A stretch of DNA of 64,000 nt from an uncultured Spirochaetales bacterium. Its GTDB lineage: Bacteria; Spirochaetota; Spirochaetia; SPDA01; CAZJBZ01. Positions 3,342 to 17,879 of the stretch are shown here, piece after piece. The DNA lies in the NCBI GenBank assembly GCA_964594055.1, contig CAZQKT010000001.1:11577-75576 (forward strand), written 5' to 3'. A program made the translations under genes and the position numbers. The notes below the pieces were generated by a model. It was given only the letters and a program-made list of their open reading frames with translations. It was not told where the DNA came from and did not search any database. Numbering within the stretch: position 1 is the stretch's first letter; each line of letters starts with the position of its first letter.

Positions 3342-4397
3342 ATGGCAAAAATAGATTTTGGCGGCGTAGTAGAAGAAGTTATCACACGGGACGAGTTTAC
3401 CTTAGAAAAGGCCCGGGAAGTGTTGAAGGATGAAGTGATCGTTGTAATCGGCTACGGGGTCCAGGGGCCGGCCCAGGCGCTCAATATGAAAGATAACGGG
3501 TTCAATGTAGTCATCGGACAATCGAAAGAGTTTAAACGTGATTATGAACGGGCCTTGAACGACGGCTGGGTCCCCGGAGAGACCCTGTTTCCCATCGAAG
3601 AGGCTGTGGAACGAGGGACTATCATTCAGTACCTCATCTCCGATGCGGGACAGCGTACGGTATGGCCCAAGCTGAAGCCGCACCTCAAAGAAGGTGACGC
3701 GCTCTATTTCTCGCACGGATTTTCGATCGTGTATAAAGACCGGACCGGGGTAATCCCTCCGGAAAACGTCGATGTCATTCTTGTCGCACCGAAAGGCTCC
3801 GGTGCGAGTGTAAGGAAGAATTTCTTGAGCGGAAGCGGCATCAATTCCAGCTATGCCGTGCACCAGGATTATACCGGCAACGCAAAGGAGAGGACCTTGG
3901 CCGTGGGTATCGCGATCGGTTCCGGGTACCTTTTTCCGACTACCTTCGAAAAGGAGGTGTATAGCGACCTGACCGGAGAACGGGGTGTTTTGATGGGCGC
4001 ATTAGCAGGCGTGATGGAATCGCAGTACAACGTACTGAGAAAAAAAGGCCATTCTCCGAGTGAAGCTTTCAACGAAACTGTTGAAGAGCTGACACAGAGC
4101 CTTATACGGCTCGTAGGAGAGAACGGAATGGATTGGATGTACTCCAACTGCAGTGCAACTGCACAGCGCGGCGCCCTCGATTGGCGGCATAAGTTCCGTG
4201 AAGCTGTCGATCCGGTATTTGAAAAACTGTATCAGAGTGTAAAAGAAGGCACTGAGACCCAGCGGGTCATCGACAGTTTGAGCTCTGCGGATTATCAAGA
4301 CATATTAGGAGCGGAACTCAAGGAGATGCGCGAGTCTGAAATGTGGCAGGCAGGTGCAGCAGTTCGTTCCCTGCGGCCCGAAAATTGGAAGAAATAG
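3342..4397 (+). CDS. ilvC: Ketol-acid reductoisomerase
   Basis: 351 aa. N-terminal Rossmann segment (VIGYGVQGPAQALNMKDNGFNVVIG) and a C-terminal KARI knotted domain (ENGMDWMYSNCSATAQRGALDW). RBS aaggag precedes the ATG. Confidence 0.85.
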   Translation: MAKIDFGGVVEEVITRDEFTLEKAREVLKDEVIVVIGYGVQGPAQALNMKDNGFNVVIGQSKEFKRDYERALNDGWVPGETLFPIEEAVERGTIIQYLISDAGQRTVWPKLKPHLKEGDALYFSHGFSIVYKDRTGVIPPENVDVILVAPKGSGASVRKNFLSGSGINSSYAVHQDYTGNAKERTLAVGIAIGSGYLFPTTFEKEVYSDLTGERGVLMGALAGVMESQYNVLRKKGHSPSEAFNETVEELTQSLIRLVGENGMDWMYSNCSATAQRGALDWRHKFREAVDPVFEKLYQSVKEGTETQRVIDSLSSADYQDILGAELKEMRESEMWQAGAAVRSLRPENWKK

Positions 4398-4406
4398 ACT
4401 CAGTCA

Positions 4407-5033
4407 TTAGTCTTCAAAAAACAGGGTGAACTCGGTATATGCTGAGTTCACCTTTATTTCTTTTGTATTGCACACCAGGTGATATCTGATATCGTCAAAA
4501 ACAAGATCAAACCTGATCCTGTTGTCTGTATACCGGTGGAGACGATCAATTGTAATTTTCTTAGAAGCGAGCGGCTCCATCAGGACGGAGGCGATAACAT
4601 CGATATAATCATTCTTGTCCATGGTATCGATGGGCAAAGTAAAAAGTTCATTCATTAATACTTCTTCGATTTTGTTCACTGTCTCCTTCGGTACATCCCC
4701 GAAGAGCAGTCTCCTGTGTATATCATCTCCATAGAGAAAACAGACCCGGTTATTTTTATCCCCTGTATCAACCTGCAGCTTAAACCGCCAGGAAAAAGGC
4801 CCCCAGTTGCTAATTTGATAGTTGGAATAGGTAATTTTACCGTCTATACTGCTGTTTATTCCGTCAATCAGCTTCTGCCGGTACGGTTCCTTTTGACTAT
4901 TAAGCGGTATTCGGGTGGGTATAATAAGATATGACCATGGATTGGTCCGCACTTCACTTAAGAGTGCGAGATATTCCCCGATTGTTGCTCCTACTTCAAA
5001 CCACAGTTCGTCTTGATGGATGTTATACTCCAC
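4407..5033 (-). CDS. Hypothetical cytoplasmic protein (orphan, AT-rich gene)
   Basis: 208 aa ORF with no recognisable motifs, no signal peptide and no TM. Local GC looks markedly lower (~35-38% in sampled 60-nt lines) than flanking genes. Confidence 0.35.
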   Translation of the reverse strand: MEYNIHQDELWFEVGATIGEYLALLSEVRTNPWSYLIIPTRIPLNSQKEPYRQKLIDGINSSIDGKITYSNYQISNWGPFSWRFKLQVDTGDKNNRVCFLYGDDIHRRLLFGDVPKETVNKIEEVLMNELFTLPIDTMDKNDYIDVIASVLMEPLASKKITIDRLHRYTDNRIRFDLVFDDIRYHLVCNTKEIKVNSAYTEFTLFFED

Positions 5034-5142
5034 AATGCTCCTCCTTGTGCCGGCTCCCGTTTAGTTTTATAACTCCGTAACAGTCTACTCCCAAAAGCTT
5101 CTCTGATGCAACCGAATTGCGCTTGTGCTATACTGACGGTCC

Positions 5143-6486
5143 ATGGACCGATCAACTCCATCGTTTCTCACCTCGATGCCGGTCAACCGGCTGCTCTTTC
5201 GCCTCGCCTTTCCGTCCGTACTCACTACCCTGACGACGGTTGTCTACAGTCTTACCGACACCTTTTTTATCGGAAAACTCGGGACAGTAGCGTTGGGTGC
5301 CCTTACCGTCTCTTTTCCAATATTTGCTCTTATCGGCAGTGTTGGTCTGGTGTTCGGAATCGGAGGAGCTTCCGTCATTTCGAGATTTTTAGGAGCAGGA
5401 GAAAACGATAAGGCCGATACTGCCGGATTTCTCGTCGTATCAGGAGTAGTTGTTTTAGGCATTATAGTAACCGGCTTCTCCTTTGCATTTCTTCGAAAGC
5501 TCCTTTTCGTTTTCGGCTCGACCGAGACAATTCTGCCCTACGCATACAGGTATGCACGAGTCTTGGTATTCGGTTCTTTTCTCACCATTATCAATATGTC
5601 CTTAAGTTATACCATACGGGCTGAAGGGAATGTCACCTTCACAATGGTTGCCATGGTAACGGGGACGATTGCCAATATCCTCCTCGACCCTCTCTTTATC
5701 TTTGTGTTCGGTTTGGGCATCGAAGGTGCTGGAATCGCCACAGTTGCCGCGCAGTTTATTACCGGTTGTTTCTATCTTTTCTACTACAGAAGCCGGCGGG
5801 CTGCAGTACGAATACGGTTTCACCGGGGAGCCGGAGTAACAAGGATCGCAGCAGAGATTGTAAAAATCGGCATTCCCAGCCTCATCAATCAGGGACTTCT
5901 AAGCATTGTCATTGCAGTTCTCAATACAATAGCCGGACAATACGGAGATGCAGCACTCGGTGCTGTCGGAATCGTTATGCGGGTGTTCTTTTTCGCGGTG
6001 TATCTTATCTTCGGGTTTTGCAGGGGGCTCCAGCCGATCGTTGGATTCAACTACGGGGCCGGGGACCTAAAACGGGTAACCGATGCCGTAAAAGCTGCAG
6101 CAGTCCGGTTGACTATTTTTTCACTGCTGTTCGGGACCGTTCTCATTCTGCTGCCCGCCCGTATAGTGATGCTTTTCAGCAGCAGTGCTGAAGTTGTCAC
6201 TCTCGGGACAAAATTACTTCGGGCGGTAGGGATCCTGTTTCCTTTCTTCGGGTTCGAAGCGGTGATGATCACTCTGCATCAAGCCGTCGGGGCGGCTATT
6301 CCCGCGGCGCTGCTTGCGCTGGCCCGGCAGGGTGTTTTACTCGTGCCGGTCGTATTGGTTCTCTATCCTTTTTTCGGATTCGACGGGCTTATCTACAGTT
6401 TCCCCGTGAATGATCTTTTGGTGCTGCTTATAACCGGGTTCTTTGCTCTCCGATTACAAAAACTACTGAAGGGAAGCAGAGAATGA
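5143..6486 (+). CDS. MATE family multidrug/oligosaccharide efflux transporter
   Basis: 447 aa with about 12 TM segments. The N-terminal LLFRLAFPSVLTTL..LTDTFFIGKLG matches the MATE motif (LxxLAxPxxL). The start may lie at the internal Met (~5176). Confidence 0.7.
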   Translation: MDRSTPSFLTSMPVNRLLFRLAFPSVLTTLTTVVYSLTDTFFIGKLGTVALGALTVSFPIFALIGSVGLVFGIGGASVISRFLGAGENDKADTAGFLVVSGVVVLGIIVTGFSFAFLRKLLFVFGSTETILPYAYRYARVLVFGSFLTIINMSLSYTIRAEGNVTFTMVAMVTGTIANILLDPLFIFVFGLGIEGAGIATVAAQFITGCFYLFYYRSRRAAVRIRFHRGAGVTRIAAEIVKIGIPSLINQGLLSIVIAVLNTIAGQYGDAALGAVGIVMRVFFFAVYLIFGFCRGLQPIVGFNYGAGDLKRVTDAVKAAAVRLTIFSLLFGTVLILLPARIVMLFSSSAEVVTLGTKLLRAVGILFPFFGFEAVMITLHQAVGAAIPAALLALARQGVLLVPVVLVLYPFFGFDGLIYSFPVNDLLVLLITGFFALRLQKLLKGSRE

Positions 6487-6494
6487 GCGTTTTT

Positions 6495-7130
6495 TTAAAA
6501 CAAGTGTCCCATTCTGTTTTTTTTCGTAAACAGATAGAATTTATTATGATCGTTTGGTTCTATGTGTAAAGCGATACGCTCTGCAACCTTAACACCGTTT
6601 TCTCTCAGTCCGGACACCTTGAGCGGATTATTGGTAAGGAGGGAAACGGAACGGATACCGAAAAGGTTGATGATCTGTGCAGCTGCGCTGTAGTCGCGGG
6701 TATCATCGGGGAGACCGAGGGTGCGGTTTGCATCCACGGTATCATACCCTCTGTCTTGGAGATGATATGCCCGAATTTTGTTGAGAAGTCCGATACCGCG
6801 CCCTTCCTGCTTCAGGTATATGAGCAGTCCGAACGGATGTTTCTGGATGTATTTGAGAGACGCTATCAACTGATCTCTGCAGTCGCACCGCAGGGAGCCG
6901 AGCACATCTCCGGTAAAACACTGAGAATGGACCCGAACCGGACAGTGTTCTTTGCCTTCGAGTTCGCCGTGGATGAGGGTAATATATTCTTCCTCGGTTT
7001 CTTCGTGAGCAAAAGCCCGCAGTTTGAAAAAACCGAATGCGGTTGGGAGGTCGGCTGTTGATACTTCTCTAATCAGTACCGTTGTTGCGGCTGATTCCTT
7101 TTTTTGTTCCGGAATATAGTACTTTTCCAT
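6495..7130 (-). CDS. ribA: GTP cyclohydrolase II
   Basis: 211 aa. Zinc-binding CxC motif (VHSQCFTGDVLGSLRCDCRDQL) and catalytic segment (EGRGIGLLNKIRAYHLQDRGYDTVDANRTLG). Monofunctional, with no RibB domain. Confidence 0.8.
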   Translation of the reverse strand: MEKYYIPEQKKESAATTVLIREVSTADLPTAFGFFKLRAFAHEETEEEYITLIHGELEGKEHCPVRVHSQCFTGDVLGSLRCDCRDQLIASLKYIQKHPFGLLIYLKQEGRGIGLLNKIRAYHLQDRGYDTVDANRTLGLPDDTRDYSAAAQIINLFGIRSVSLLTNNPLKVSGLRENGVKVAERIALHIEPNDHNKFYLFTKKNRMGHLF

Positions 7131-7152
7131 TTTTTATTATAAAATTTACTAT

Positions 7153-7207
7153 ATTAGTCAACTTGAATTATAATAATTTGTTAGCAGTTAGTCAATTTAA
7201 TTAGAAT
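7153..7207. repeat. Two imperfect direct repeats TTAGTCAA(C/T)TT(G/-)AATTA in the ribA/methyltransferase divergent intergenic region
   Basis: tattagtcaacttgaattat ... gttagtcaatttaattag in an AT-rich 80-nt divergent promoter region. Confidence 0.4.
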
Positions 7208-7210
7208 TAT

Positions 7211-8176
7211 ATGAGAACTTATACAGGAGAACCGGCGGACAGCCCCGAAAAAAGGGATAAAGAAAAGACCGTTATTCGCTATTACGATCGGAATACGAAA
7301 CGTTTTCTCTCCCTCGGGCAGGGCGGTTCGGTCTCTGCCATTCACCGGGCGGTATGGGCGCCCGAAGTCACAAATAGAGAAGAGGGGATGCACTATGTGC
7401 ATGATCTCATAGTAAAAAACGCTCTACAGCTTCAGCCCGAGCTGGTCGTAGATTTAGGCTGTGGTATTGGAGGAAGCATGCTCTATCTCGCTTCCCGCTG
7501 CAAAGCCCGGTTTTACGGGGTAACTATCAGCAGGATACAGGCGGCCGCAGGTGCGCTTCTCATCCGGGAAAAGGAGATGGACAGGCGCGTTGTTATTGAA
7601 CAGAGAAGCTATCTCGATTCATCATTGTACAGTTTGCTGGAAAAAAAGCGGGGTAGCGGAGCTTGTCTTTTCTACGGGATCGAGTCGTTTCTCCATACTC
7701 CCTCTAGTGAGGAGTTGCTTGATCATCTCGGTGGGTTCTGTAGAGCAGGTGATGTATTGATTGTCTGCGATGATTTTTTATCGGTAGAATGGGGAGAAGG
7801 TCCGAGAGGGAAACCGAAAACCGGAGGGGAGAGGACTGTTTCTAGAAAAGCGGTCCGGATGGTCTCCCGGTTTAGAAGAAACTGGAAGGCCCACGGCTTG
7901 ATTTCCGCGAAACAATTGATTTTACTTGCCGGCAGGTACGGTTTTCAGCTCAAGGAAAACCGAAATCTTACCGGATTCCTGGAATTGGGTAGGGTCCGCG
8001 ACAAAATTATCCGTTTTGCGGTCTTTTTTTTGGTGGTCCTCCCGTTTCGTCCGTCCTGGTTGGAAAATATGATTGGAGGAGATGCGCTGCAGTATCTGCT
8101 CAAACGAGGGACTGTCGAATACCGCTATCTTGTGTTTAATAAAGCTCCTTCTCAAACCCATAGACACTCCTGCTGA
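7211..8176 (+). CDS. Class I SAM-dependent methyltransferase
   Basis: 321 aa with glycine-rich motif I (VVDLGCGIGGSMLYLA) and a downstream acidic loop (FYGVTIS) typical of the Rossmann-fold MTase. Confidence 0.6.
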   Translation: MRTYTGEPADSPEKRDKEKTVIRYYDRNTKRFLSLGQGGSVSAIHRAVWAPEVTNREEGMHYVHDLIVKNALQLQPELVVDLGCGIGGSMLYLASRCKARFYGVTISRIQAAAGALLIREKEMDRRVVIEQRSYLDSSLYSLLEKKRGSGACLFYGIESFLHTPSSEELLDHLGGFCRAGDVLIVCDDFLSVEWGEGPRGKPKTGGERTVSRKAVRMVSRFRRNWKAHGLISAKQLILLAGRYGFQLKENRNLTGFLELGRVRDKIIRFAVFFLVVLPFRPSWLENMIGGDALQYLLKRGTVEYRYLVFNKAPSQTHRHSC

Positions 8177-9788
8177 TGTCAAGAAGCATGGGAGCAAACC
8201 GGTCTAGTTTCGGATGGGGAGGTAGTTGATCGGGTTTGAGCCCCGGTGTAAACCCGTAATCGTGGAAGGGTGCTATTAGCGTTTGGTCTCTCGAGAGTAT
8301 GTGGGCAATTACCGATTTTGTAGATTCTTTCTCCCGTACCGGAAACCGGGGCTGGTGGTCGCCGATTACAATGATAAGCGATGTATCCTCGATATAGTTT
8401 GTGAAAAATGCAGTAAGGGTTTTCAATACATAGCCGACCGATGCTGTATAGCCTTCCGGATATTCCCCCCCGCTGATCCAGTTGTTGTGGAAACGGAGAT
8501 TGTCCAACGCGTAGTATTCGCTGCCGTCGGTAATACTGTCCCAATTCGGTATATATGCCGGTACAAAATTGAAAGGGGTATGGCTGCTTACAAGCATCGC
8601 CATAAGAAACAGCGGCACGGAATCGATATCTTTCTCGGCAGGGCGGTTAAGAGGTCCTAACCGCAATTTGTTGAGTTGGTACTGGTCGGGCATCTCTCCG
8701 AAACAAAACGGAGGACCCTGATAGTTGAAATCTTCGGCAAAGTAGTACTCGTCAAACGGGTAGAACCGTTTCCAATCATTTGAAGCTGCTGTCGTCCCCG
8801 GGGCGGACATGATGGTCCGATATCCTGCATCGTTGAATACGTGAATGATATTGGTAATATCTGTGGTGATTACTTTGTCATACGTCGGCTGAGAATCTAC
8901 CCAAACTCCTGTTAAAAGTGTCGCATCTGCAAGCCACGACCTTCCCCCGGTTATTGGAGAGGAGAGAAAATGGGATGCCATGGTGTACCCTTCTCGGGTT
9001 AATGACCGCTGTGCTTCATCGAAAGCCGGTTCGATAAGTTCAAAATGTTCTTTTCTCGAAAAGAGTGTGTGTCCGTACGATTCGACGATAAAAAGGTATA
9101 CATCTCTGTCCTTCAGACGCGGGAAATGGTGCGCACGTTCTTGTTCTTCTGATAACCGGTCCGGGTTAGCCGCTTGTTTCACGAGTTCTCCTTCATCAGG
9201 AATTACTACAGGAGTAGGCGGTTCGAGTTGGGCTATCATGAGTGAAGTTAGGTTCTGCGGCGCACCAAATAAAAATAAAGCAGGAATGAGGTAGACTCCG
9301 AGCAGAAGTGAATAGGGATATGATTTTTGTAGTTGTCGGGCGAATACGTTCAAGAAAAAATAAAAAAGAGCGGTAAGCAGCAAAAATATCAGAAGCGCAG
9401 CTGCAATAAGAACAAAACGGTTCCCGCCGGTATTTACTCTGAAAACCATATCGACTAAGGGAGAAATGAAAGCGATGTCCGTCCACGGGACAAAATGGCG
9501 TTCGAATGCATATTGATTGAGTGCTTCACCAAATCCGAAAACGACATATATGACGGTCAACCCGGATAAAAGCGCAAGGATGCCGGTTTGTATGCGGTGA
9601 CCAAAGAGAAGGGAGAGGCCGAGAATAATCATAATCCCGACCGATTCAACAGAAGGAGCAAGAAGAAGGTGAAAATCATACCCGGGGAACCATCGGAACA
9701 GTGTGATAACCCCGTTTAAAATAAAATAGAGGACTGTAAAAATACAAAGGGAGCGGATGATAGAAAGAGTAAACTTTTGTTCAATCAT
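8136..9788 (-). CDS. LtaS/sulfatase-like (alkaline-phosphatase superfamily) polytopic membrane protein; putative phosphoglycerol/phosphoethanolamine transferase
   Basis: 550 aa. About 5 N-terminal TM helices followed by an extracytoplasmic domain with sulfatase-family segments (SSHTPFNF, VIGDHQP). Start overlaps the upstream gene (ATGA), and it is the last gene of a minus-strand operon. Confidence 0.5.
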   Translation of the reverse strand: MIEQKFTLSIIRSLCIFTVLYFILNGVITLFRWFPGYDFHLLLAPSVESVGIMIILGLSLLFGHRIQTGILALLSGLTVIYVVFGFGEALNQYAFERHFVPWTDIAFISPLVDMVFRVNTGGNRFVLIAAALLIFLLLTALFYFFLNVFARQLQKSYPYSLLLGVYLIPALFLFGAPQNLTSLMIAQLEPPTPVVIPDEGELVKQAANPDRLSEEQERAHHFPRLKDRDVYLFIVESYGHTLFSRKEHFELIEPAFDEAQRSLTREGYTMASHFLSSPITGGRSWLADATLLTGVWVDSQPTYDKVITTDITNIIHVFNDAGYRTIMSAPGTTAASNDWKRFYPFDEYYFAEDFNYQGPPFCFGEMPDQYQLNKLRLGPLNRPAEKDIDSVPLFLMAMLVSSHTPFNFVPAYIPNWDSITDGSEYYALDNLRFHNNWISGGEYPEGYTASVGYVLKTLTAFFTNYIEDTSLIIVIGDHQPRFPVREKESTKSVIAHILSRDQTLIAPFHDYGFTPGLKPDQLPPHPKLDRFAPMLLDISRSVYGFEKELY

Positions 9789-11221
9789 GATAGCAGCCGC
9801 GCGTAAATATCTCCTGAAGGGCCGTCCGCTTCCAAGGTTTTCAAGTGGTCAGAGAGTATTTCCTTGTTCACCCAGGTTTTCCAGTACAGTTCCATTGTTT
9901 CGACCATGGAGATATTAAACTCATACTTTCCGATTCGATCAAGTTCTTCCAGTGCTCTGAAGGCCACATCAATAGATGCGGGCAGAAATTCAAAAGAAAT
10001 GGCCTGTATTGTACAGGTAAGCCCTTGTAACACTTCTGCTTCAAACCCTTCTACATCGATTTTTATAAAAGTAGGAGTGCCGTACTGCTCGATAAGGCTG
10101 TCCAGCGTGGTCACAGGAACCGGTATCGATCGGGTCCAATCGATATGTTTAAAGGCCGGGGTCTTCTTTACCGTATCGATCCATGGTTTGGAGACAGTGG
10201 AAAGGGTTGGACTCGAATCACAGAGATACAGTTCGGTAGTCCCTTCGGTTTTACCTACTGCGGTATTGAGAACGTGAACTTCTTGTTTTTTTCCGTAAAA
10301 TCTCTGCAGAAGGTCATAACAGCGGGGAGAGGGCTCTGCCGCTACAACGGCAGCACCGAGGGAAAGCCACGGCCGTATTCTGTTTCCCAGATGCGAGCCG
10401 ATGTCGAAACAGAGACTGCCTGGTGATATAAACCGGCTGTAAAACTGTTTCATCTTCTTATAACGACCCGGTACTCCGTAGTAGATAAAAAAAGATTTTA
10501 AGAGGCCTGCTGTCCCCCTGCCTCGAATTGCTGTTTCCCATAAGAATGATCCCGTAAGGGCTGCAAGTGCAGTTCCTGCTGCTGCAGAGGCAAACCGGGT
10601 AACAGAGAACGGAGCAAAGAAAGCGATGAGCGAGCCTGCTGTAAAAACGCAGACCGTTTTCGCATAGATTGTAAAAGCTCTGCTGAAATGAAGCCGGGTA
10701 TCATCACTTTGAAATAGAGGAAGGAGAAACAGCAGGCCGAAAATGTATCGGATCAGACCTACAGCAAGTATCCATATTCCGGCATGGAGATACCTATTTA
10801 CTGTAAAAGCCAGCAAAAGAATAAAAAAAGCATCAGATTCGGCATCGAGAACTGAACCTCTATCCGTCGCACCCCGCCTGCGGGCGATCATACCGTCGAG
10901 GAGGTCGGTAAACTCCAGTGCGATAAGGCCGAAAAAGAGGAGATAACTCGAAGGAACGTAGCCAAGGAGTGATACTGCAAGAAGCACCGCGATTCCTCCG
11001 GCGGGCCTAAGCAGGGTTATCACGTCCGCTATTCTCGAAGGGGGCCCTAAAAACCAAAACAGGGATAAAAAACCGATACCGGAGATAGTGAGAAAAATAA
11101 TGGATGCATTAGGTGCAGCTTCAGGAGAAGCGAACAAAGAAACCCCGGCAGCTGCACAGGTAAGAGGGGCGTGCAGGAGGAGCCGGAGTGTCTGTTGCTT
11201 TTGCATCGAAACGGCGTTCAT
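9785..11221 (-). CDS. Fusion protein: N-terminal CDP-alcohol phosphatidyltransferase domain + C-terminal FkbM-family methyltransferase domain
   Basis: 478 aa. N-terminal multi-TM region with the CDP-OH phosphotransferase signature DLLDGMIARRRGATDRGSVLDAESDAF (D-x2-D-G-x2-A-R...G-x3-D-x3-D). C-terminal soluble domain with FkbM-type MTase motifs (CFDIGSHLGN...VVAAEPSP...FEFLPASID). Confidence 0.55.
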   Translation of the reverse strand: MNAVSMQKQQTLRLLLHAPLTCAAAGVSLFASPEAAPNASIIFLTISGIGFLSLFWFLGPPSRIADVITLLRPAGGIAVLLAVSLLGYVPSSYLLFFGLIALEFTDLLDGMIARRRGATDRGSVLDAESDAFFILLLAFTVNRYLHAGIWILAVGLIRYIFGLLFLLPLFQSDDTRLHFSRAFTIYAKTVCVFTAGSLIAFFAPFSVTRFASAAAGTALAALTGSFLWETAIRGRGTAGLLKSFFIYYGVPGRYKKMKQFYSRFISPGSLCFDIGSHLGNRIRPWLSLGAAVVAAEPSPRCYDLLQRFYGKKQEVHVLNTAVGKTEGTTELYLCDSSPTLSTVSKPWIDTVKKTPAFKHIDWTRSIPVPVTTLDSLIEQYGTPTFIKIDVEGFEAEVLQGLTCTIQAISFEFLPASIDVAFRALEELDRIGKYEFNISMVETMELYWKTWVNKEILSDHLKTLEADGPSGDIYARLLS

Positions 11222-11258
11222 TAGTATTCCCCTCTTACCGATTCCTCTTTTACCGCAG

Positions 11259-12314
11259 CTAGCCGACGAGGTACTTTTTCAAACGAGCTGCAGCTTCGTC
11301 CCACGTAGGAAACTTGCTTTCAGAAACAGCAGCTTTAGCGGCTCCTTCGGTGTGGATATCTCCTCGAAGAAGCTTTGCCACAGTCTGCCTCCATCCTTGC
11401 CGGTCAAATGGAGAAAAAAGGTGCCCGTTTTCCCCGTCCCGGATAAACTCTTCGATCGCACCGACCGTGTTAGCGACGACCGGGACCCCTGCAGCTGCCG
11501 CTTCGAGAGGCGCCATCCCGTAGCTTTCTGCAGCGGAAGGGAAAAGGAATAAATCTGCTTCAGCGAGCTGTTCTAAAATCATGCTTCTATCTACCAAATC
11601 TAAAAGGGATATTCTGTCTCTCACCGGACTGGTCCTTACTGCCTGGAGAAATTGGGAGGCGTAACGTGAATCCTCCCGGCATCCGCCTGCTATTCTCCAT
11701 TCCCACGGGGCCCCGCTCACTGAGGGTCCGCCGGCCGGCGTATCGGAAAGGGATTCCAAGATGCGAAGCAACCAGAGGAGGTTTTTACTCCTGGTAACCG
11801 AAGAGACGGTCAGCAAGATTCGGGAGTGGTCGGGTTTTGCATACCTTTTTTTTCTCAACTCGGTAAACCGCGGGGCTACTCCGGGAGGGCATACGTTTAT
11901 CTTGACCTCCGGTATCCCGAGCCCGGACAATACCTGTTTCATAGAGTTACTGGTGGTAATGTATGCATCCATTCCGGCAAGAAATCGAAGCTCACGATAC
12001 TGCATGGATTTTTTCACTCCTGCGGTGAGAAAGGGATCGAGACTGGGGAGATAATGGATAAGGCCGAGAAACCGTACTCCGGATGTTTTATTGATTACCG
12101 GGAACAAAAGTTCAGGATGCTGAATAAAAAGAGAATCAAGAACAACCAAACGGGCTTGGTGTAAAAAAGAGAGATCACTCTGTGCATCAATTGTGTAATA
12201 CCTGAGAGTACCGTCCGCAGAAAGCCGCTCGGTCATCTCTTTGTTATAAATATAGCCGCCGGTGAGAAAGTTTTCAGATGCTGGAGCTACTAGTGTAATC
12301 AATGTGATCACCAT
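11259..12314 (-). CDS. Glycosyltransferase family 1 (GT4-type)
   Basis: 351 aa. C-terminal GT1 motif ESYGMAPLEAAAAGVPVVANTVGAIEEFIRDGENGHLF (E-x7-E). Confidence 0.75.
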   Translation of the reverse strand: MVITLITLVAPASENFLTGGYIYNKEMTERLSADGTLRYYTIDAQSDLSFLHQARLVVLDSLFIQHPELLFPVINKTSGVRFLGLIHYLPSLDPFLTAGVKKSMQYRELRFLAGMDAYITTSNSMKQVLSGLGIPEVKINVCPPGVAPRFTELRKKRYAKPDHSRILLTVSSVTRSKNLLWLLRILESLSDTPAGGPSVSGAPWEWRIAGGCREDSRYASQFLQAVRTSPVRDRISLLDLVDRSMILEQLAEADLFLFPSAAESYGMAPLEAAAAGVPVVANTVGAIEEFIRDGENGHLFSPFDRQGWRQTVAKLLRGDIHTEGAAKAAVSESKFPTWDEAAARLKKYLVG

Positions 12315-12390
12315 TATATATAATAATAACTATATGATGCAATATTATTTGTCATCTTCTGTACTTTTCACTATACTAAAATGATTGATT

Positions 12391-13107
12391 ATGGGACCCG
12401 GGCCGTATGTAACAGTCAGCTATGCTCAAAGTATTGACGGAAGAATAGCGACAAAGACGGGCGATTCACAATACATTTCCGGAAAGAGAACACTTCGGTT
12501 GGCCCACAAGCTTCGAAAAATAAATGATGCAATACTGGTCGGTATCGAAACGGTATTAACCGACGATCCGCTCCTTACTTGCAGGGTCGGCGGCCGGGAG
12601 AAAAAGAAGAGAAATCCGGTCCGGGTCATCCTCGATTCAAACCTTCGAATCCCCCTCGGTTCCCGTATCGTTGAAACAGCTGCAGCGGTTCCCACGATTG
12701 TCTTTACCTGTGAACACATATCAGAGAAAAAAAGAACAGCGCTGCAAACACACGGGATTCAGATCGAAACGGGAGCGTGGAATGCTCAATCGGAGAGGAT
12801 CGATCTTGCCCGCTGCCTCCGGCGCCTCGACGAATTACAAATTAAAACGCTGTTTGTAGAGGGGGGCGGGAGAGTCATAACTGCTTTTGTAAAAGAGAAC
12901 TTAGTCGATAAAATGATCGTCATTACCGCGCCCTTTTTGCTAGGTGCGGGTATTCCCTCGATTGGGGATTTAGAAATAACTGTTCTCGGAGAGGCGATTA
13001 GGCCCTATAAAACACGGTTTCGCCGGTACGGTCACGATTCCGCCTGGGAATTGTACTTTGGAGGCGGAAATGTACGTGGAAGAGACGGGAGGGCAAATGG
13101 AAGCTGA
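12391..13107 (+). CDS. RibD C-terminal-domain (DHFR-like) reductase
   Basis: ~238 aa. VSYAQSIDGRIATKTGDSQYISGKRTLRLAHKLRKINDAILVGIETVLTDDPLLTCR matches the RibD/RibG reductase domain. An ATG at 12391 follows a possible TTG at 12385. Confidence 0.6.
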   Translation: MGPGPYVTVSYAQSIDGRIATKTGDSQYISGKRTLRLAHKLRKINDAILVGIETVLTDDPLLTCRVGGREKKKRNPVRVILDSNLRIPLGSRIVETAAAVPTIVFTCEHISEKKRTALQTHGIQIETGAWNAQSERIDLARCLRRLDELQIKTLFVEGGGRVITAFVKENLVDKMIVITAPFLLGAGIPSIGDLEITVLGEAIRPYKTRFRRYGHDSAWELYFGGGNVRGRDGRANGS

Positions 13108-14095
13108 GAAAGCGCAAGCTGTCTATTTTACCGCCCCTGGAAAAGTAGAAACGAGGAGCGAGAAGATTTCTCCTGACTCGGAGGAGAAAGGCTTTCAGGA
13201 ACTCATCCGATCCGAGGTGATGGGGATAAGCCATGGTACCGAGCTCCTGTTCTATCGGGGGGAAATCGAAGAGGGAAGTCTCCTCGATGAAAATTTGCCC
13301 GCACTCATCGGTTCCTTTCATTACCCGTTAAAATACGGCTATATCAATGTCGGTATAACCGAGAGCGGGAAACGGGTGTTCTGTTTTTATCCCCACCAAA
13401 CCGCCTTTTATCTTTCTAAGAATAACTATATCGAAATCCCAAAAGAAATAGAAAGCAGGGACGCACTGTTTTGTGCAAGCATGGAGACGGCGGCAGGGAT
13501 CGTGCAGGATTGTGCCCCGGTATTAGGAGAAAATATACTGGTTGTCGGTCAGGGCTTAATCGGGCTGCTCGTCACATCGATACTGACCCGGTCTCATTAT
13601 GGGCAGGTTATTACTGTCGAATCGTATAAAAAAAGGCGGGAAGCTTCCCGGCGGTTAGGGGCAACCGTGATCGACCCTGGTGCAGGTGATGTGCGCGAAG
13701 CGGTTTTCTCCGCTACATCCGGGAGAGGGGCTGATAAGGCGATCAATGTCACCGGGACCACCTCCGGTTTCCAAACGGGGATACATGCCCTTGTACGAGA
13801 AGGGACCTTAATTGAAGCTTCTTGGTACGGCACAAAAACCGTCGAAGCTCAATTAGGGGGGGCTTTTCACCGGAGAAGGCTGCGGGTCATAAGCAGTCAG
13901 GTTTCCACGATCTCACCCTTGCTTTTTCCGCGGTGGGACAAAACGAGGAGGATGGAACTCGTCTGGGATTTGATACGGAACATAAAACCGTCACTACTTA
14001 TAACGCATACGTACCCGATTGATGAGGCGGGAAAGGCCTTCGAGTTGATCGACAAGAGACCGGAAGAGACGATTCAGGTGGTACTCACACCGTAA
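13097..14095 (+). CDS. Medium-chain dehydrogenase/reductase (zinc-type alcohol dehydrogenase family)
   Basis: GroES-like plus Rossmann (VVGQGLIGLLVTSIL) architecture. The ORF is open from 13058; I chose the Met at 13097 (MEAEKAQAVYFTAPGKVE), preceded by a GGGAGGG SD. The start is uncertain. Confidence 0.6.
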   Translation: MEAEKAQAVYFTAPGKVETRSEKISPDSEEKGFQELIRSEVMGISHGTELLFYRGEIEEGSLLDENLPALIGSFHYPLKYGYINVGITESGKRVFCFYPHQTAFYLSKNNYIEIPKEIESRDALFCASMETAAGIVQDCAPVLGENILVVGQGLIGLLVTSILTRSHYGQVITVESYKKRREASRRLGATVIDPGAGDVREAVFSATSGRGADKAINVTGTTSGFQTGIHALVREGTLIEASWYGTKTVEAQLGGAFHRRRLRVISSQVSTISPLLFPRWDKTRRMELVWDLIRNIKPSLLITHTYPIDEAGKAFELIDKRPEETIQVVLTP

Positions 14096-14111
14096 AAAAG
14101 CTTGCTGTCTA

Positions 14112-14519
14112 ATGCAATACGAGGGGGTATACAGGATGTTTCAGGCAGGAGTAAAAAAGAAGTTTCTAGCACGTCATTTTCTGCGGGGCGATTTTGACGA
14201 AGAGACCGTCGCCCACAGTCACGACTACCTCGTCTACTGGCGTGTGGCAACTGAGGACCTCGATGAGAATGGGTTCTCCGTAGATATAGCGCTCATGGAA
14301 GAGCTTCTCGAGGGCTTTCTCGCGGAGCATAAGGAGAAGCTCCTAAACGATTTACCGTTTTTTCACAACCGCCAAGCGTCGGTTGAGAATACCGCCCTCT
14401 ATCTGCACCGAAAACTCTCTGAGGGGCTGGAACAGCACGGAGTCGACCCCAAACCGTTTATCGAAATGGAGGTGACTATTTGGGAGTCGGAAGAAGCGTG
14501 GGCTTCGTATACAGAGTAA
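14112..14519 (+). CDS. 6-pyruvoyl-tetrahydropterin synthase / QueD-like family protein
   Basis: ~127-135 aa. The pattern KKFLARHFLRGDFDEETVAHSHDYLV resembles the PTPS fold (F-x-AAH...H-G-H-x-Y). The true start is possibly the Met at 14136. Confidence 0.4.
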   Translation: MQYEGVYRMFQAGVKKKFLARHFLRGDFDEETVAHSHDYLVYWRVATEDLDENGFSVDIALMEELLEGFLAEHKEKLLNDLPFFHNRQASVENTALYLHRKLSEGLEQHGVDPKPFIEMEVTIWESEEAWASYTE

Positions 14520-14539
14520 CAGGCCGATTAACGGATAGA

Positions 14540-14968
14540 TCAGCGGCCCACTGTAAAATCATCGCCCGATTGTTGGGTCAAATCCACCACGACTTGTTTC
14601 CCTTCGAAACCGTGTTTATTGCAGCGTGCCCGCACCGTTACCTGTTCGACTCCTTCGGGGATAGAGACGCCCCCTACACTTCGAATAAAGGGCTGTTCGT
14701 TTACATGGGGATGAAGCAGCTCACGCGAGCCTAACACCTCGCCGTTTTCGGTATCGACTACTTCCCACAGATTGGCGTAATGGTCCCATCCGGTGTCCGC
14801 ATGGCGCACCTTTACAGTGAATGACCAGTTGCCGCTGCTTTCTTTTTCCGCAGCAACATGGAGCACCTGGGCATAGTCGAGGTCGCTGTTATAGTGAGCG
14901 CTCTCTTCTGCAAACATGAATCCTCCGGTAACGAGAAATAATGGTAAAAGCAAAAAAATATACCGCAT
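14540..14968 (-). CDS. Hypothetical secreted protein
   Basis: 142 aa with an N-terminal signal peptide (MRYIFLLLPLFLVTGGFMFA). No known motif. Confidence 0.4.
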   Translation of the reverse strand: MRYIFLLLPLFLVTGGFMFAEESAHYNSDLDYAQVLHVAAEKESSGNWSFTVKVRHADTGWDHYANLWEVVDTENGEVLGSRELLHPHVNEQPFIRSVGGVSIPEGVEQVTVRARCNKHGFEGKQVVVDLTQQSGDDFTVGR

Positions 14969-15068
14969 AGTATTAATAAATATACGGCCATGTGGGTTTT
15001 TTGCAAAATAAATAAATTTTTGTTACTCTGAAAAGTATGATACCATCGTTTTATCGAGGAGGAAAAAC

Positions 15069-16007
15069 ATGCACGAAAGAAGATTAGGAAAGCAGGGCCC
15101 GGAGGTTCCGGTGATCGGATTCGGAGGATGGCCGATCGGCGGCGGGATGGGTGCTGTAGACGAGGATACTGCGGTCCGTACCGTGCGGGAGGCAATTGAA
15201 CAGGGTATTACACTTATCGACACGGCGGAGGCGTACCGTTCGAGTGAGCAGAGAATCGGAAAGGCCCTGAAAGGCATTGACCGGGAACGGTATTTTTTAG
15301 CTACTAAGGTAAGTTTCGATATGAGTGCCAAAGGGGTGGAAAAAGCACTCGAGAAGAGCCTCCGTGCTTTAGGTGTCGAGTATATCGATCTCTACCAGAT
15401 CCATTTTTGGGACGATACTGTTCCGGTAGAAGAGACGTTGGAAGCGATATACAAGTTCCGGGAAGCAGGAAAACTAAAACATATCGGAGTTTCCAATTTC
15501 AAGGTGGAACATATGAAGCGTGCCCTCGAGGCGGCACCGGTAGTTTCGAATCAAATCAATTACAATATGTTTCTTCGATCTGCTGAAAAAGCGCTTGTCC
15601 CGTTCTGCAGCAAACACGGAGTGGGGATTATGGTGCACAGTACTCTTGCCAAAGGCTTTTTGGCAGGCAAGTATAACAGAAGCCACCGTTTTGCCTCTGA
15701 TGATGAGCGTTCGGAGTTTGCCCAGTATAAAGGAGAAACGTTTAATCGATATCTCGATGCTGTTGATGAGTTGAAAGCAGTTGCTGTTGATAATGGATGG
15801 ACCCTCATCGAGCTTGCGATCGCGTGGGTGCTGAGAAACAGAGAAGTGACTACCGCATTGATAGGAATAAAAAACCCCGAGCAAATCGAGGCACCTCGAA
15901 AAGCCGGTGACCGCGCCCTTACTGCCGAGGACCTTGCCAGGATCGAAGACATACTCACCCGGCATAATCTTGAGAAACTGGCCCCGTTCGAAGCCCAAAT
16001 CGTGTAA
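15069..16007 (+). CDS. Aldo/keto reductase
   Basis: 312 aa. MHERRLGKQGPEVPVIGFGGWPIGG...GITLIDTAEAYRSSEQRIGKAL, with AKR C-terminal motifs. RBS ggagga precedes the start. Confidence 0.8.
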   Translation: MHERRLGKQGPEVPVIGFGGWPIGGGMGAVDEDTAVRTVREAIEQGITLIDTAEAYRSSEQRIGKALKGIDRERYFLATKVSFDMSAKGVEKALEKSLRALGVEYIDLYQIHFWDDTVPVEETLEAIYKFREAGKLKHIGVSNFKVEHMKRALEAAPVVSNQINYNMFLRSAEKALVPFCSKHGVGIMVHSTLAKGFLAGKYNRSHRFASDDERSEFAQYKGETFNRYLDAVDELKAVAVDNGWTLIELAIAWVLRNREVTTALIGIKNPEQIEAPRKAGDRALTAEDLARIEDILTRHNLEKLAPFEAQIV

Positions 16008-16247: not shown

Positions 16248-17879
16248 CTAAACCTCTCCGTTCTGAAGTGAGCGCATATGGAGAGTAAGTTCTCGGAAGT
16301 TTTCGATGTTTTCAGCTCCGATACTGCTCAGTTTACTTGCTTCGTTTACAACTTTTTCCGCCAGTTCGGTTAACGTTGTAATCTGTTCCTGCACAGTCTC
16401 CACGGTTGCCCCGATGTAGGTCATACTCATAGATCCTGTCTTAATATCCTCTTCCATGCCGGACAGGGAGCCGGTTACCTCTCTGTTGACATCGGTAATC
16501 TGGCCGACTGCTTCTTCGATCTGGGCCTGCCCTTCCTTCAGTTCCTGCATGCCGCTTACGATCTCTAAGAGGGCATTCCGGACATCGGTAATCTTCATAA
16601 TGATATTTCCGTATACCGACCCCATTTTCTCACTGGATTGTACCGACCGGTTTATCAGTGTGCTGCTTTCTTCGAGTGTCGAACGGATCATTTGGGAGTT
16701 GTCGTTATTCTCTTCCGCGAGTTTACGGATTTCTTCCGCTACAACCGCAAAACCATGACCATATTCTCCGGCGTGAGCGGCCTCGATGGCCGCATTCATG
16801 GCGAGCATATTTGTCCTGTCCGCGATCTGTTCGATTACAGTTATAATTTCGATGATATTTTCGGAAGATTTGGACACCGAGCGCAGAGAGGTGACCATTT
16901 CATGAAGGGTGTCAGTTCCCCTCTCAGAGACTTCGACCAGCTCGTCGATAACCGACTGTTTTTGCTCCGCAGAATTTGTAATCGAAGCCACCTGAGCTGT
17001 AATTTCCTCGGCAGCAGCAGAGGAACTGCTGATCACTTCGGTCTGCTTTTCGGTGACGGCTTTCATCGACTCTTTGGAATTACCGATTTTCTCCTGTGCC
17101 GAGGCAGCGTTATCAACGCTTTTGAGAAGGTCGGAAATACTCGTAGACATCGAGGTGAGATGTTCGGAAATATCAGCCGCAATTGATTCATTATTTTTTG
17201 CCTGCTCCTGCAGTTTTTCTCCCATATTAAATGCCTCACCCATCGACTCAATCAACTCTTTTAACGTGCTGTACTGTTCGTTTGCTTTCTGCGCCTGCCG
17301 GTTTATGGAAGCAAGACTTTGCATCTGCATTCTGAAAATTTGGAAAATAAAAACACCGGCAAAAATCATAAGAAGCAGAGAAACGAGAAACTCCGTAAGG
17401 GCCTCTCCGGTATACTGTATCTGTTCAAGGGCCGGCCGTATTCGCAGAAAAAACTGGGCCGAGTGGACTGCAACTCCAAATCCGACAACACCAATAACCT
17501 GCCACCGGGCGTAGGCTAGAAGCGGTGCTGTGACGAAAACAGGAATCATGTAGGTGGCTTGGATATAGACATCGTGCGGACTGGTTATGTCACGGACAAA
17601 GAAAAGACCGGCCCCGGCAAGACAAAAAAGGAGAATGGTCCCTGAGCTTACAATCCGAAATGCCTTTCTTAGAATGCCGAAGATAAAGAGAACGAGAATA
17701 AGGGTCACACAGATCTCGAGTACACCCATAAGAATAGAGCCGGTGGCAAGCCGTATGCCGCCGAGGGCCAGAAAGCCGATGCCGAGGATGATCGCCAAAA
17801 TAAAAAGGGAGAGAGCTTTTTCCCGGATAGTCACATTTTCGTCTGAGTAGAGTGAGCGAATATAGTCTGTCGTTTTCAT
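16248..17879 (-). CDS. Methyl-accepting chemotaxis protein with polytopic membrane N-terminus
   Basis: 543 aa. About 6 TM helices, then the MCP signalling-domain core ([34 protein letters not shown]). Confidence 0.8.

Follow-up and report, generated by a model that had tools for sequence, protein, structure and literature searches.

Several bacterial envelope enzymes, among them LtaP, LtaS, MCR-1, EptA, EptC and GacH, move, outside the cytoplasmic membrane, a phospho-alcohol from a membrane phospholipid. LtaS, GacH and OpgB use phosphatidylglycerol, which is made through PgsA, and EptA and MCR-1 use phosphatidylethanolamine. In this work we analysed a stretch of 64,000 nucleotides (nt) from an uncultured Spirochaetales bacterium (assembly GCA_964594055.1, contig CAZQKT010000001.1, positions 11,577 to 75,576), hereafter called the window. 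It contains a conserved cluster of eight genes, in which a transferase resembling these enzymes lies together with a CDP-alcohol phosphatidyltransferase (CDP-OH) fused to an FkbM-type methyltransferase, a glycosyltransferase, and enzymes that process guanosine triphosphate (GTP). In the reading that we prefer, with a probability of roughly 45%, a polyol phosphate derived from GTP (a ribitylaminopyrimidine or else a pterin) would be glycosylated, methylated and lipid-linked from cytidine diphosphate-diacylglycerol (CDP-diacylglycerol), and the phospho-head group would then be transferred outside the membrane. Such a system would be a variant of the schemes in which a head group is built on CDP-diacylglycerol and then transferred outside, and it would represent a new lipid class if the head group is guanine-derived.

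Two further described systems bear on the GTP-processing half. The PTPS-IV group, which includes Streptomyces coelicolor SCO6650, has FGPAQ as its published signature and forms a network cluster of 561 sequences with genes of PF00925 and PF01872 as neighbours (PMC5445326). In Chlamydia, RibA and TrpF provide a bypass in which the product of GTP cyclohydrolase II (GCH-II) is converted to dihydroneopterin monophosphate (PMC4161248).

The first-pass annotation of the window had proposed an envelope-polymer operon of three minus-strand genes with overlapping stop and start codons. The three open reading frames (ORFs) were indeed found at 12314..11259, 11221..9785 and 9788..8136, and all three domain assignments were confirmed by Pfam profile search, the Sulfatase domain only just. 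The codons overlap at the second junction only, where ATGA at 9785-9788 is shared by the fusion gene and the LtaS/EptA-like gene. At the first junction the stop of the glycosyltransferase gene and the start of the fusion gene are 37 nt apart, with a GAGGGG Shine-Dalgarno (ribosome-binding) site between them. The three genes and the parts of the fusion are as follows.

11259..12314, minus strand: GT-B glycosyltransferase, apparently GT4-like (Pfam Glycos_transf_1), 351 amino acids (aa); PF13692 77.3 bits, PF00534 72.1 bits
9785..11221, minus strand: CDP-alcohol phosphatidyltransferase::FkbM fusion ORF, 478 aa
10517..11221, minus strand: CDP-OH domain of the fusion, residues 1-235; signature D106...D130 at 10832-10906
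9785..10516, minus strand: FkbM-type S-adenosylmethionine (SAM) methyltransferase domain of the fusion, residues 236-478 and stop codon; PF05050 56.9 bits, TIGR01444 84.1 bits
8136..9788, minus strand: predicted membrane-anchored transferase of the alkaline phosphatase superfamily (LtaS/EptA/GacH-like), 550 aa; Pfam Sulfatase 25.9 bits

These genes do not form a self-contained operon, as had been supposed. They are the membrane half of a larger conserved cluster found in many bacterial phyla, of which the CDP-OH::FkbM fusion is one lineage's packaging. The span of 8136-12314 is thus too small, and the functional unit covers approximately 6495-14519. The genes flanking the trio in this unit are the following.

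6495..7130, minus strand: GCH-II (RibA type); PF00925 201.7 bits, TIGR00505 226.9 bits
7211..8176, plus strand: class-I SAM methyltransferase (CMAS-like); PF02353 CMAS 27.0 bits, at threshold; motif VVDLGCGIGG
12385..13107, plus strand: RibD_C-type pyrimidine (ribosylamino) reductase without a deaminase domain; PF01872 166.9 bits
13058..14095, plus strand: MDR-superfamily NAD(P) dehydrogenase/reductase (BchC/Tdh-like); PF00107 39.8 bits
14112..14519, plus strand: PTPS-like T-fold protein, variant of the PTPS-IV (SCO6650) group; PF01242 67.1 bits

It is very probable that all eight genes serve a single pathway. The families concerned (GT4, CDP-OH, FkbM and sulfatase-like in the trio, flanked by GCH-II, RibD_C, MDR dehydrogenase, PTPS-like and a second methyltransferase) are all present in the related loci L001, L003-5, L007 and L088, with 30-62% identity per protein. 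In L001, L003-5 and L007 the fusion homologues are 40-47% identical to that of the window, and the same gene set occurs in different orders and orientations. L088 carries the same set with FkbM as a separate gene, the CDP-OH domain being fused to the sulfatase-like protein instead. A further 80 genome loci were retrieved, only through FkbM-domain motifs, and the window proteins were mapped on them by tblastn. Among the 49 loci of at least 15 kb, 19 had four or more of the 7 other families, and 11 had six or more. The dehydrogenase was the commonest companion (39 of the 80 loci). The GT4 gene was present in 34 of 80 and in all spirochaete-type loci; GCH-II accompanied the cluster in 22 of 80, in addition to L001, L003, L007 and L088. 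Loci bearing companions belong to Halomonas, Vreelandella, Hydrogenophaga, Dactylosporangium, Pedococcus and Pseudonocardiaceae, and also to Vicinamibacteraceae, Thiotrichaceae, Wenzhouxiangellaceae, Inquilinus and Hyphomicrobiales. Where relatives of the cluster proteins are named, they are spirochaetes. IlvC was too conserved to resolve the phylum, its named hits of about 79% identity being spread over Spirochaetota, Bacteroidota and Chloroflexi.

Members of the cluster are also joined covalently, and the joints were checked by reading frame. CDP-OH::sulfatase-like fusions were found in L088, P0093, P0095, P0096, P0099 and P0106, and in-frame RibD_C::dehydrogenase fusions in L001 (6672-8444) and L007 (7105-8742). 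Two candidates were rejected: an 835-aa ORF of Pedococcus (L037), taken for a CDP-OH::sulfatase fusion, is a high-GC ORF artefact over two separate genes (CDP-OH at 7527-8297), and a 633-aa ORF of Halomonas, taken for LPG_synthase_TM::RibD_C, has its RibD_C match on the other strand. The neighbours include candidate translocators, namely MFS_3 in L001, L006 and L007, LPG_synthase_TM in L014, L037 and L054, and MATE in L041, so that the cluster seems to be accompanied repeatedly by a translocator, though not always one of the same family. Clusters in loci that are not of the spirochaete type contain an LPG_synthase_TM (MprF-flippase-family) protein and a Methyltransf_25 gene, the latter lying after GT4 in place of the CMAS-like gene. 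No cytidylyltransferase was conserved in any locus.

Within the middle gene of the trio, CDP-OH_P_transf (PF01066) matched residues 64-210 with 37.1 bits against a cut-off of 22, and Methyltransf_21/FkbM (PF05050) residues 289-411 with 56.9 bits against 22.7; TIGR01444 (fkbM_fam) gave 84.1 bits against 37.7. The D-G-x2-A-R...G-x3-D-x3-D motif noticed at first pass is present, the full signature being D106-x2-D109-G-x2-A-R114-x7-G122-x3-D126-x3-D130, with a spacer of 7 residues between AR and G. In an alignment of 11 homologues D106, D109, G110, A113, R114, G122, D126 and D130 are invariant, as are the FkbM motifs DIGSHLGN and KIDVEGFE. An AlphaFold model (pLDDT, the program's confidence score, of 82.8) shows the polytopic helical fold of solved CDP-OH members, passing by continuous helices and without a break into a class-I Rossmann SAM-methyltransferase domain. 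The transmembrane (TM) domain is structurally closest to PgsA, an enzyme acting on CDP-diacylglycerol and a polyol phosphate. By sequence it belongs to no characterised CDP-OH subfamily (PgsA, PIP synthase, PssA and Cls, among others, were compared), the best NCBIfam equivalogs reaching 16-20 bits against cut-offs of 109-200.

The 478-aa fusion is genuine. In a search of 5.8 billion proteins, ten clusters contained both Pfam domains at 35-83% identity. A HMMER search with the N-terminal 240 residues alone, against 1.84 billion representatives at 50% identity, gave 52 proteins with an E value of at most 1e-10; the 150 best matches listed are mostly standalone proteins of 210-290 aa, with about 15 of 458-554 aa and two of 763-774 aa. 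The FkbM fusion was present in all 10 of the long representatives tested. The reading frame was verified in the window, P0002-9, P0011, ten further representatives, L019, L022, L025, L027 and L047. The genome scan placed the fusion in Salinispira, in Inquilinus/Inquilinaceae and in Caldilinea/Caldilineaceae; in most other clusters FkbM is a standalone gene. At least 13 separate 50%-identity clusters, and genomes from three phyla, thus have this architecture, which was rightly pointed out as unusual at first pass. An assembly or sequencing frameshift that joined two genes has next to no probability, because the fusion recurs with a conserved junction: residues 225-265 align nearly ungapped in the 11 homologues, with invariant residues, and are modelled as continuous helices. 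Nothing was found that would speak for such an artefact.

The third protein of the trio has five hydrophobic N-terminal segments before residue 177, predicted by hydropathy to span the membrane, followed by the catalytic domain. Its AlphaFold (AF2) model has a pLDDT of 87.6, and the best Foldseek matches were LtaP, LtaS, MCR-1/EptA, EptC, PbgA and GacH, with E values of 3e-10 to 1e-6. The matches to EptA (5FGN) and MCR-1 (9NWW) are full-length, and those to LtaP, LtaS and GacH concern the domain. In favour of our reading, the enzymes matched by fold, apart from PbgA, which binds lipopolysaccharide and cardiolipin, obtain phospho-alcohols from phospholipids. Among 42 homologues E236, S284, H403, D477 and H478 are invariant. 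S284 opens a helix (284-293) in the model, and a helix N-terminus is where the superfamily places its nucleophile; S284 is therefore the probable nucleophile, a Ser instead of the Thr of LtaS and EptA, the equivalence of the residues being putative. E236, D477 and H478 are putative metal ligands (a Glu and an Asp-His pair). Judged from the model, the transferase is therefore LtaS/EptA-like by fold and architecture, but it lies outside every characterised subfamily, since it matched no NCBIfam family at E<=0.01 (the LtaS, EptA and OpgB equivalogs included) and no PDB sequence at E<=0.1. In one protein of 746 aa (P0157, JGI 3300042731) a homologue of the transferase is joined to a PEMT/Ste14-type membrane methyltransferase, and the other cluster genes are absent from its locus. 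In the window the transferase gene (minus strand) converges with the CMAS-like methyltransferase gene (plus strand), their 3' ends overlapping by 41 nt at 8136-8176.

Compared with the route from PgsA through phosphatidylglycerol to LtaS, GacH or OpgB, the transferase is similar in that its best structural matches are LtaP, LtaS and GacH. In Halomonas its gene also adjoins mdoG and an mdoH-like gene: at 4726-10771 of L054 (Halomonas mongoliensis), as in other Halomonas and Vreelandella loci, mdoG (PF04349, 629 bits) and an mdoH-like ORF lie between the sulfatase-like gene and FkbM, which may point to osmoregulated periplasmic glucans as a possible acceptor in Halomonas. The cluster differs from that route in the negligible sequence similarity of its synthase to PgsA (16.9 bits against a cut-off of 109), in the unmatched LtaS and OpgB models, in the probable nucleophile Ser284 where LtaS has Thr, and in the clustering, and sometimes fusion, of the two enzymes with GTP-processing enzymes. 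This last link points to a dedicated head group, not to glycerol phosphate. With EptA, MCR-1 and EptC the transferase shares a five-helix N-terminal membrane domain and a catalytic domain predicted to be periplasmic, but the identity is only 12-15%, there is no NCBIfam match, and nothing points to phosphatidylethanolamine as the donor.

The glycosyltransferase matched Glycos_transf_1 and Glyco_trans_1_4 with 72-77 bits and has an E-x7-E motif (ESYGMAPLE) in its C-terminal Rossmann domain. It had been labelled GT1, which is correct for the Pfam name ('group 1') but not for CAZy, in which the sequence looks like a retaining GT4 enzyme. Its nearest NCBIfam and PDB relatives are MshA, BshA, GlcNAc-PG synthase and PimA, all of which act on polyol phosphates or phospholipid head groups. 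The cluster resembles the pair of PIP synthase and PimA in phosphatidylinositol mannoside (PIM) synthesis, and the MshA and BshA thiol pathways, in combining a CDP-OH enzyme acting on a polyol phosphate with a retaining GT4 enzyme acting on a polyol, its phosphate or a lipid head group. Unlike them it contains no inositol-phosphate synthase, its scores are far below the equivalog thresholds, and its polyol would be expected from GTP.

The GTP-processing half was examined in the same way. All cluster GCH-II proteins, that of the window included, keep the equivalent of Escherichia coli Tyr105, and because of this residue they should make the normal deformylated product. S. coelicolor SCO6655, which we take to have Met instead of the catalytic Tyr and to release a formylated product, was reportedly described so by Spoonamore et al. 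in 2006. A formamidopyrimidine (FAPy)-forming GCH-II of that kind (Tyr to Met) was considered for the cluster and ruled out, all members keeping Tyr. The RibD_C protein scored 174.9 bits with TIGR00227, above the cut-off, and 145.8 bits with TIGR01508, the archaeal-type reductase; its PDB matches were Bacillus subtilis RibD (E 6e-31) and the Methanocaldococcus jannaschii reductase (E 7e-27). The dehydrogenase has a GxGxxG motif (VVGQGLIG) and weak NCBIfam matches to tdh and bchC, its PDB matches being secondary-alcohol dehydrogenases. It lacks the catalytic zinc ligands, with GISHGTE and GYI where zinc alcohol dehydrogenases have Cys and His-Glu. At 13058-13107 the dehydrogenase gene overlaps the RibD_C gene in a different reading frame, and its start is uncertain (TTG 13058, ATG 13070 or ATG 13097). 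CMAS-like methyltransferase orthologues of 30-39% identity were found in L001, L003, L007, L088 and L052. The flanking genes are not a riboflavin operon, since an Rfam scan of 4300-15300 found no FMN riboswitch or other Rfam family and the ORFs scanned in 4400-16000 included no deaminase, RibB, RibH or RibE.

The PTPS-like protein of the window has SCO6650 (3D7J) as its best PDB match (E 4.8e-6) and shares with it a C-terminal (W/H)ES..AWASY segment, in our own reading the putative site of the ring-anchoring Glu. Its counterparts from proteobacterial, actinobacterial and acidobacterial clusters have FGPAQ...HGAT and share 50-84% identity with SCO6650, FGPAQ being found in 37 cluster PTPS sequences from other phyla. 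The window protein is without FGPAQ and reads F-D-E-E-T-V-A-H-S-H, an E-x3-H-S-H form in which the three zinc-binding His are kept. This second subtype (E-x3-H-x-H, all three zinc His) is shared by the window, L001, L003, L007, L018 and L020, its Glu standing at the position of the catalytic Cys of QueD. In the FGPAQ...HGAT subtype one zinc His and the base are lost, so that two sharply distinct subtypes occur in otherwise homologous clusters. As in the PTPS-IV/SCO6650 neighbourhood, a PTPS-like gene is clustered with genes of PF00925 (GCH-II) and PF01872 (RibD_C reductase), both in the window (14112-14519, 6495-7130 and 12385-13107) and in related loci. The window and its spirochaete-type relatives, as well as L018 and L020, differ from it in having no FGPAQ, and the published description of the neighbourhood names PF00925 and PF01872 alone and none of the membrane enzymes (PMC5445326).

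Because the trio travels with GCH-II, RibD_C, the MDR dehydrogenase and the PTPS-like protein, the 'alcohol' is most likely GTP-derived rather than glycerol or inositol. We infer all chemical steps after the RibD_C reduction, as well as the donor and the acceptor. GCH-II would open GTP to 2,5-diamino-6-ribosylamino-4(3H)-pyrimidinone 5'-phosphate, the established function of the family for which the Tyr is kept, and RibD_C, strongly homologous to authentic reductases, would reduce the ribosyl to a ribityl group; since there is no deaminase, the steps would follow the archaeal/fungal order. The polyol phosphate may then be remodelled by the dehydrogenase and the PTPS-like protein. With C2' re-oxidised, the ring may close and give a neopterin-phosphate-like pterin, the kind of ligand that would be expected for a T-fold protein, and the RibD_C::dehydrogenase fusion suggests consecutive redox steps. 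A pterin substrate is chemically plausible because in Chlamydia it is likewise the GCH-II product, and not that of GCH-I, that enters pterin synthesis, although through the Amadori isomerase TrpF, where a reductase and a dehydrogenase are proposed here (PMC4161248). The GT4 enzyme would add a sugar and the two methyltransferases would methylate, as their families suggest. At the cytoplasmic face the CDP-OH domain would join the head-group alcohol to the phosphatidyl group of CDP-diacylglycerol, giving a phosphatidyl-X, and the fused FkbM domain may act on this lipid-bound product, methylating it at the membrane surface. CDP-diacylglycerol would be the economical donor, since no cytidylyltransferase is conserved and the membrane fold is PgsA-like. 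Once a MATE, MFS or LPG_synthase_TM-type partner had translocated the lipid, it could serve the LtaS/EptA-like enzyme as donor, the phospho-head group being passed to an extracytoplasmic acceptor, by analogy with LtaS, GacH and OpgB acting on phosphatidylglycerol and with EptA and MCR-1 acting on phosphatidylethanolamine.

Several observations weigh against this pathway. No product, substrate or phenotype is on record for any cluster member, no paper characterising the cluster was found in the searchable literature, and for PTPS-IV the only recorded function is an unpublished connection with archaeal F420 (PMC5041015). We also infer the membrane topology of the cluster enzymes by analogy, and the CDP-OH family can use soluble substrates, the lipid product being putative. 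For the transferase, the Sulfatase match is marginal (25.9 bits against a cut-off of 25.0 for a 550-aa protein), the TM-scores of the fold matches are only 0.33-0.45, and the missing NCBIfam assignment counts in the same sense. The dehydrogenase step is dispensable or replaced in L003-type clusters, because at about 7810-8124 of L003, L004 and L005 only a 104-aa ORF remnant is left, of which residues 260-298 alone align. Finally, the alphaproteobacterial cluster L065 has a membrane GT2 gene (Glyco_trans_2_3, 8547-9989) between the dehydrogenase and FkbM, and neither a CDP-OH nor a sulfatase-like gene was detected within 10 kb, so that the membrane module is not universal. Such alphaproteobacterial clusters would suit an alternative that we consider unlikely, in which the product is a soluble or exported metabolite, that is, a glycosylated and methylated pterin-, lumazine- or ribitylaminopyrimidine-type molecule serving as cofactor, pigment, signal or compatible solute. 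In that case a soluble acceptor would receive a phospho-alcohol from the CDP-OH enzyme, in the manner of the DIPP synthases, the sulfatase-like protein would trim or hydrolyse a phosphate or sulfate ester, and MATE or MFS would export the product. Efflux-type transporters (MATE, MFS_3) do adjoin spirochaete-type clusters, many loci come from saline habitats or halophiles (Halomonas, Salinispira), and cyanobacteria and Chlorobium have pterin glycosides whose synthesis involves GT-B enzymes. However, the sulfatase-like protein, with its approximately five TM helices, is nearer to lipid-using transferases than to soluble sulfatases and is repeatedly fused to the CDP-OH domain, an LPG_synthase_TM protein of the MprF-flippase type occurs in proteobacterial and actinobacterial clusters, and there is no cytidylyltransferase to make a CDP-alcohol donor.

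A resident membrane lipid, to which we give the same low rank, would have phosphatidyl-X as the end product, and the LtaS/EptA-like enzyme would add ordinary phosphoglycerol or phosphoethanolamine to it or to another envelope molecule. The logic of PIM synthesis, with a CDP-OH synthase followed by a GT4 enzyme on the head group, fits the relatives PimA and GlcNAc-PG synthase, and the FkbM fusion suggests chemistry on a lipid-bound head group. The coupling of CDP-OH and sulfatase-like proteins, including covalent fusion, is nevertheless easier to understand if one makes the donor of the other; the resident lipid and the transferred head group differ in the last step only and are inseparable in silico. 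The proposal from which the analysis started, taken literally, was a three-gene operon for a methylated phospho-alcohol glycolipid or a lipoteichoic-acid-like polymer made from common alcohols, with unrelated flanks. Its general logic, a phospho-alcohol head-group synthase combined with an LtaS-type transferase acting on the envelope, is retained in the pathway that we prefer. As a whole we regard it as very improbable. The genes are co-directional, one junction indicates translational coupling, and the fold matches include the lipoteichoic acid synthases LtaS and LtaP, but the flanking genes migrate with the trio across phyla and rearrangements, and the riboswitch and the riboflavin genes are missing from the scanned region. 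Nothing specific points to the polymer: the NCBIfam models for LtaS, EptA and OpgB found no match, the likely nucleophile is Ser and not Thr, and the spirochaetes, to which the closest named relatives belong, are diderm.

Each enzyme of the cluster is of a known family, and their combination is undescribed in the searchable literature. In it, purine ring-opening chemistry (GCH-II, RibD_C and the PTPS-like protein) is tied by conserved synteny and fusions to phospholipid head-group synthesis and to LtaS/EptA-type transfer. A broader proposal, which we put forward as distinctly tentative, is an undescribed class of envelope molecules: a phospholipid whose head group consists of a GTP-derived heterocycle-polyol (ribitylaminopyrimidine or neopterin-like pterin) with sugar and methyl groups, and from which a dedicated LtaS/EptA-like enzyme would move the phospho-head group to periplasmic or surface acceptors. 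This might be the missing function of the PTPS-IV (SCO6650) and extra-GCH-II loci across Proteobacteria, Actinobacteria, Acidobacteria, Chloroflexi, Bacteroidota and spirochaetes. If it is true, the membranes or envelopes of bacteria in at least six phyla carry a guanine-derived head group as a decoration, possibly with properties useful in redox chemistry, UV screening or immune recognition, and PTPS-IV and the extra-GCH-II paralogues, orphans in the searchable literature, gain a function. The question is directly testable, the cluster being present in the cultivable genera Halomonas and Dactylosporangium and in Actinomadura-like actinomycetes.

The remaining features around the cluster are a transporter gene and two divergent intergenic regions.

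5143..6486, plus strand: MATE-family transporter; TIGR00797 matE 198 bits; cluster membership uncertain
7131..7210, no strand assigned: divergent intergenic region between the GCH-II and methyltransferase genes, with promoter-like hexamer pairs on both strands
12315..12384, no strand assigned: divergent intergenic region between the GT4 and RibD_C operons, with promoter-like sites on both strands

The MATE gene directly adjoins the GCH-II gene, and its product is a possible exporter or flippase companion. The promoter-like sites are matches to the consensus only. In 7131-7210 the minus-strand pair (11/12) has one hexamer starting at 7195 and the second ending at 7167, and the plus-strand pair (10/12) spans 7145-7174; in 12315-12384 the plus-strand pair (10/12) spans 12349-12377, and the minus-strand pair (9/12) has one hexamer starting at 12371 and the second ending at 12344. 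The end of the cluster is adjoined by a minus-strand ORF of 142 aa (14540-14968) with a signal-peptide-like N-terminus, for which Pfam and NCBIfam gave no match and none of the related loci had a counterpart. In L003, L004 and L005 the cluster is surrounded by several URO-D (PF01208) paralogues. A minus-strand ORF at 16248-17879 resembles, by the look of its sequence, a methyl-accepting chemotaxis protein, and genes for such proteins also adjoin the cluster in L001, L007 and L088.

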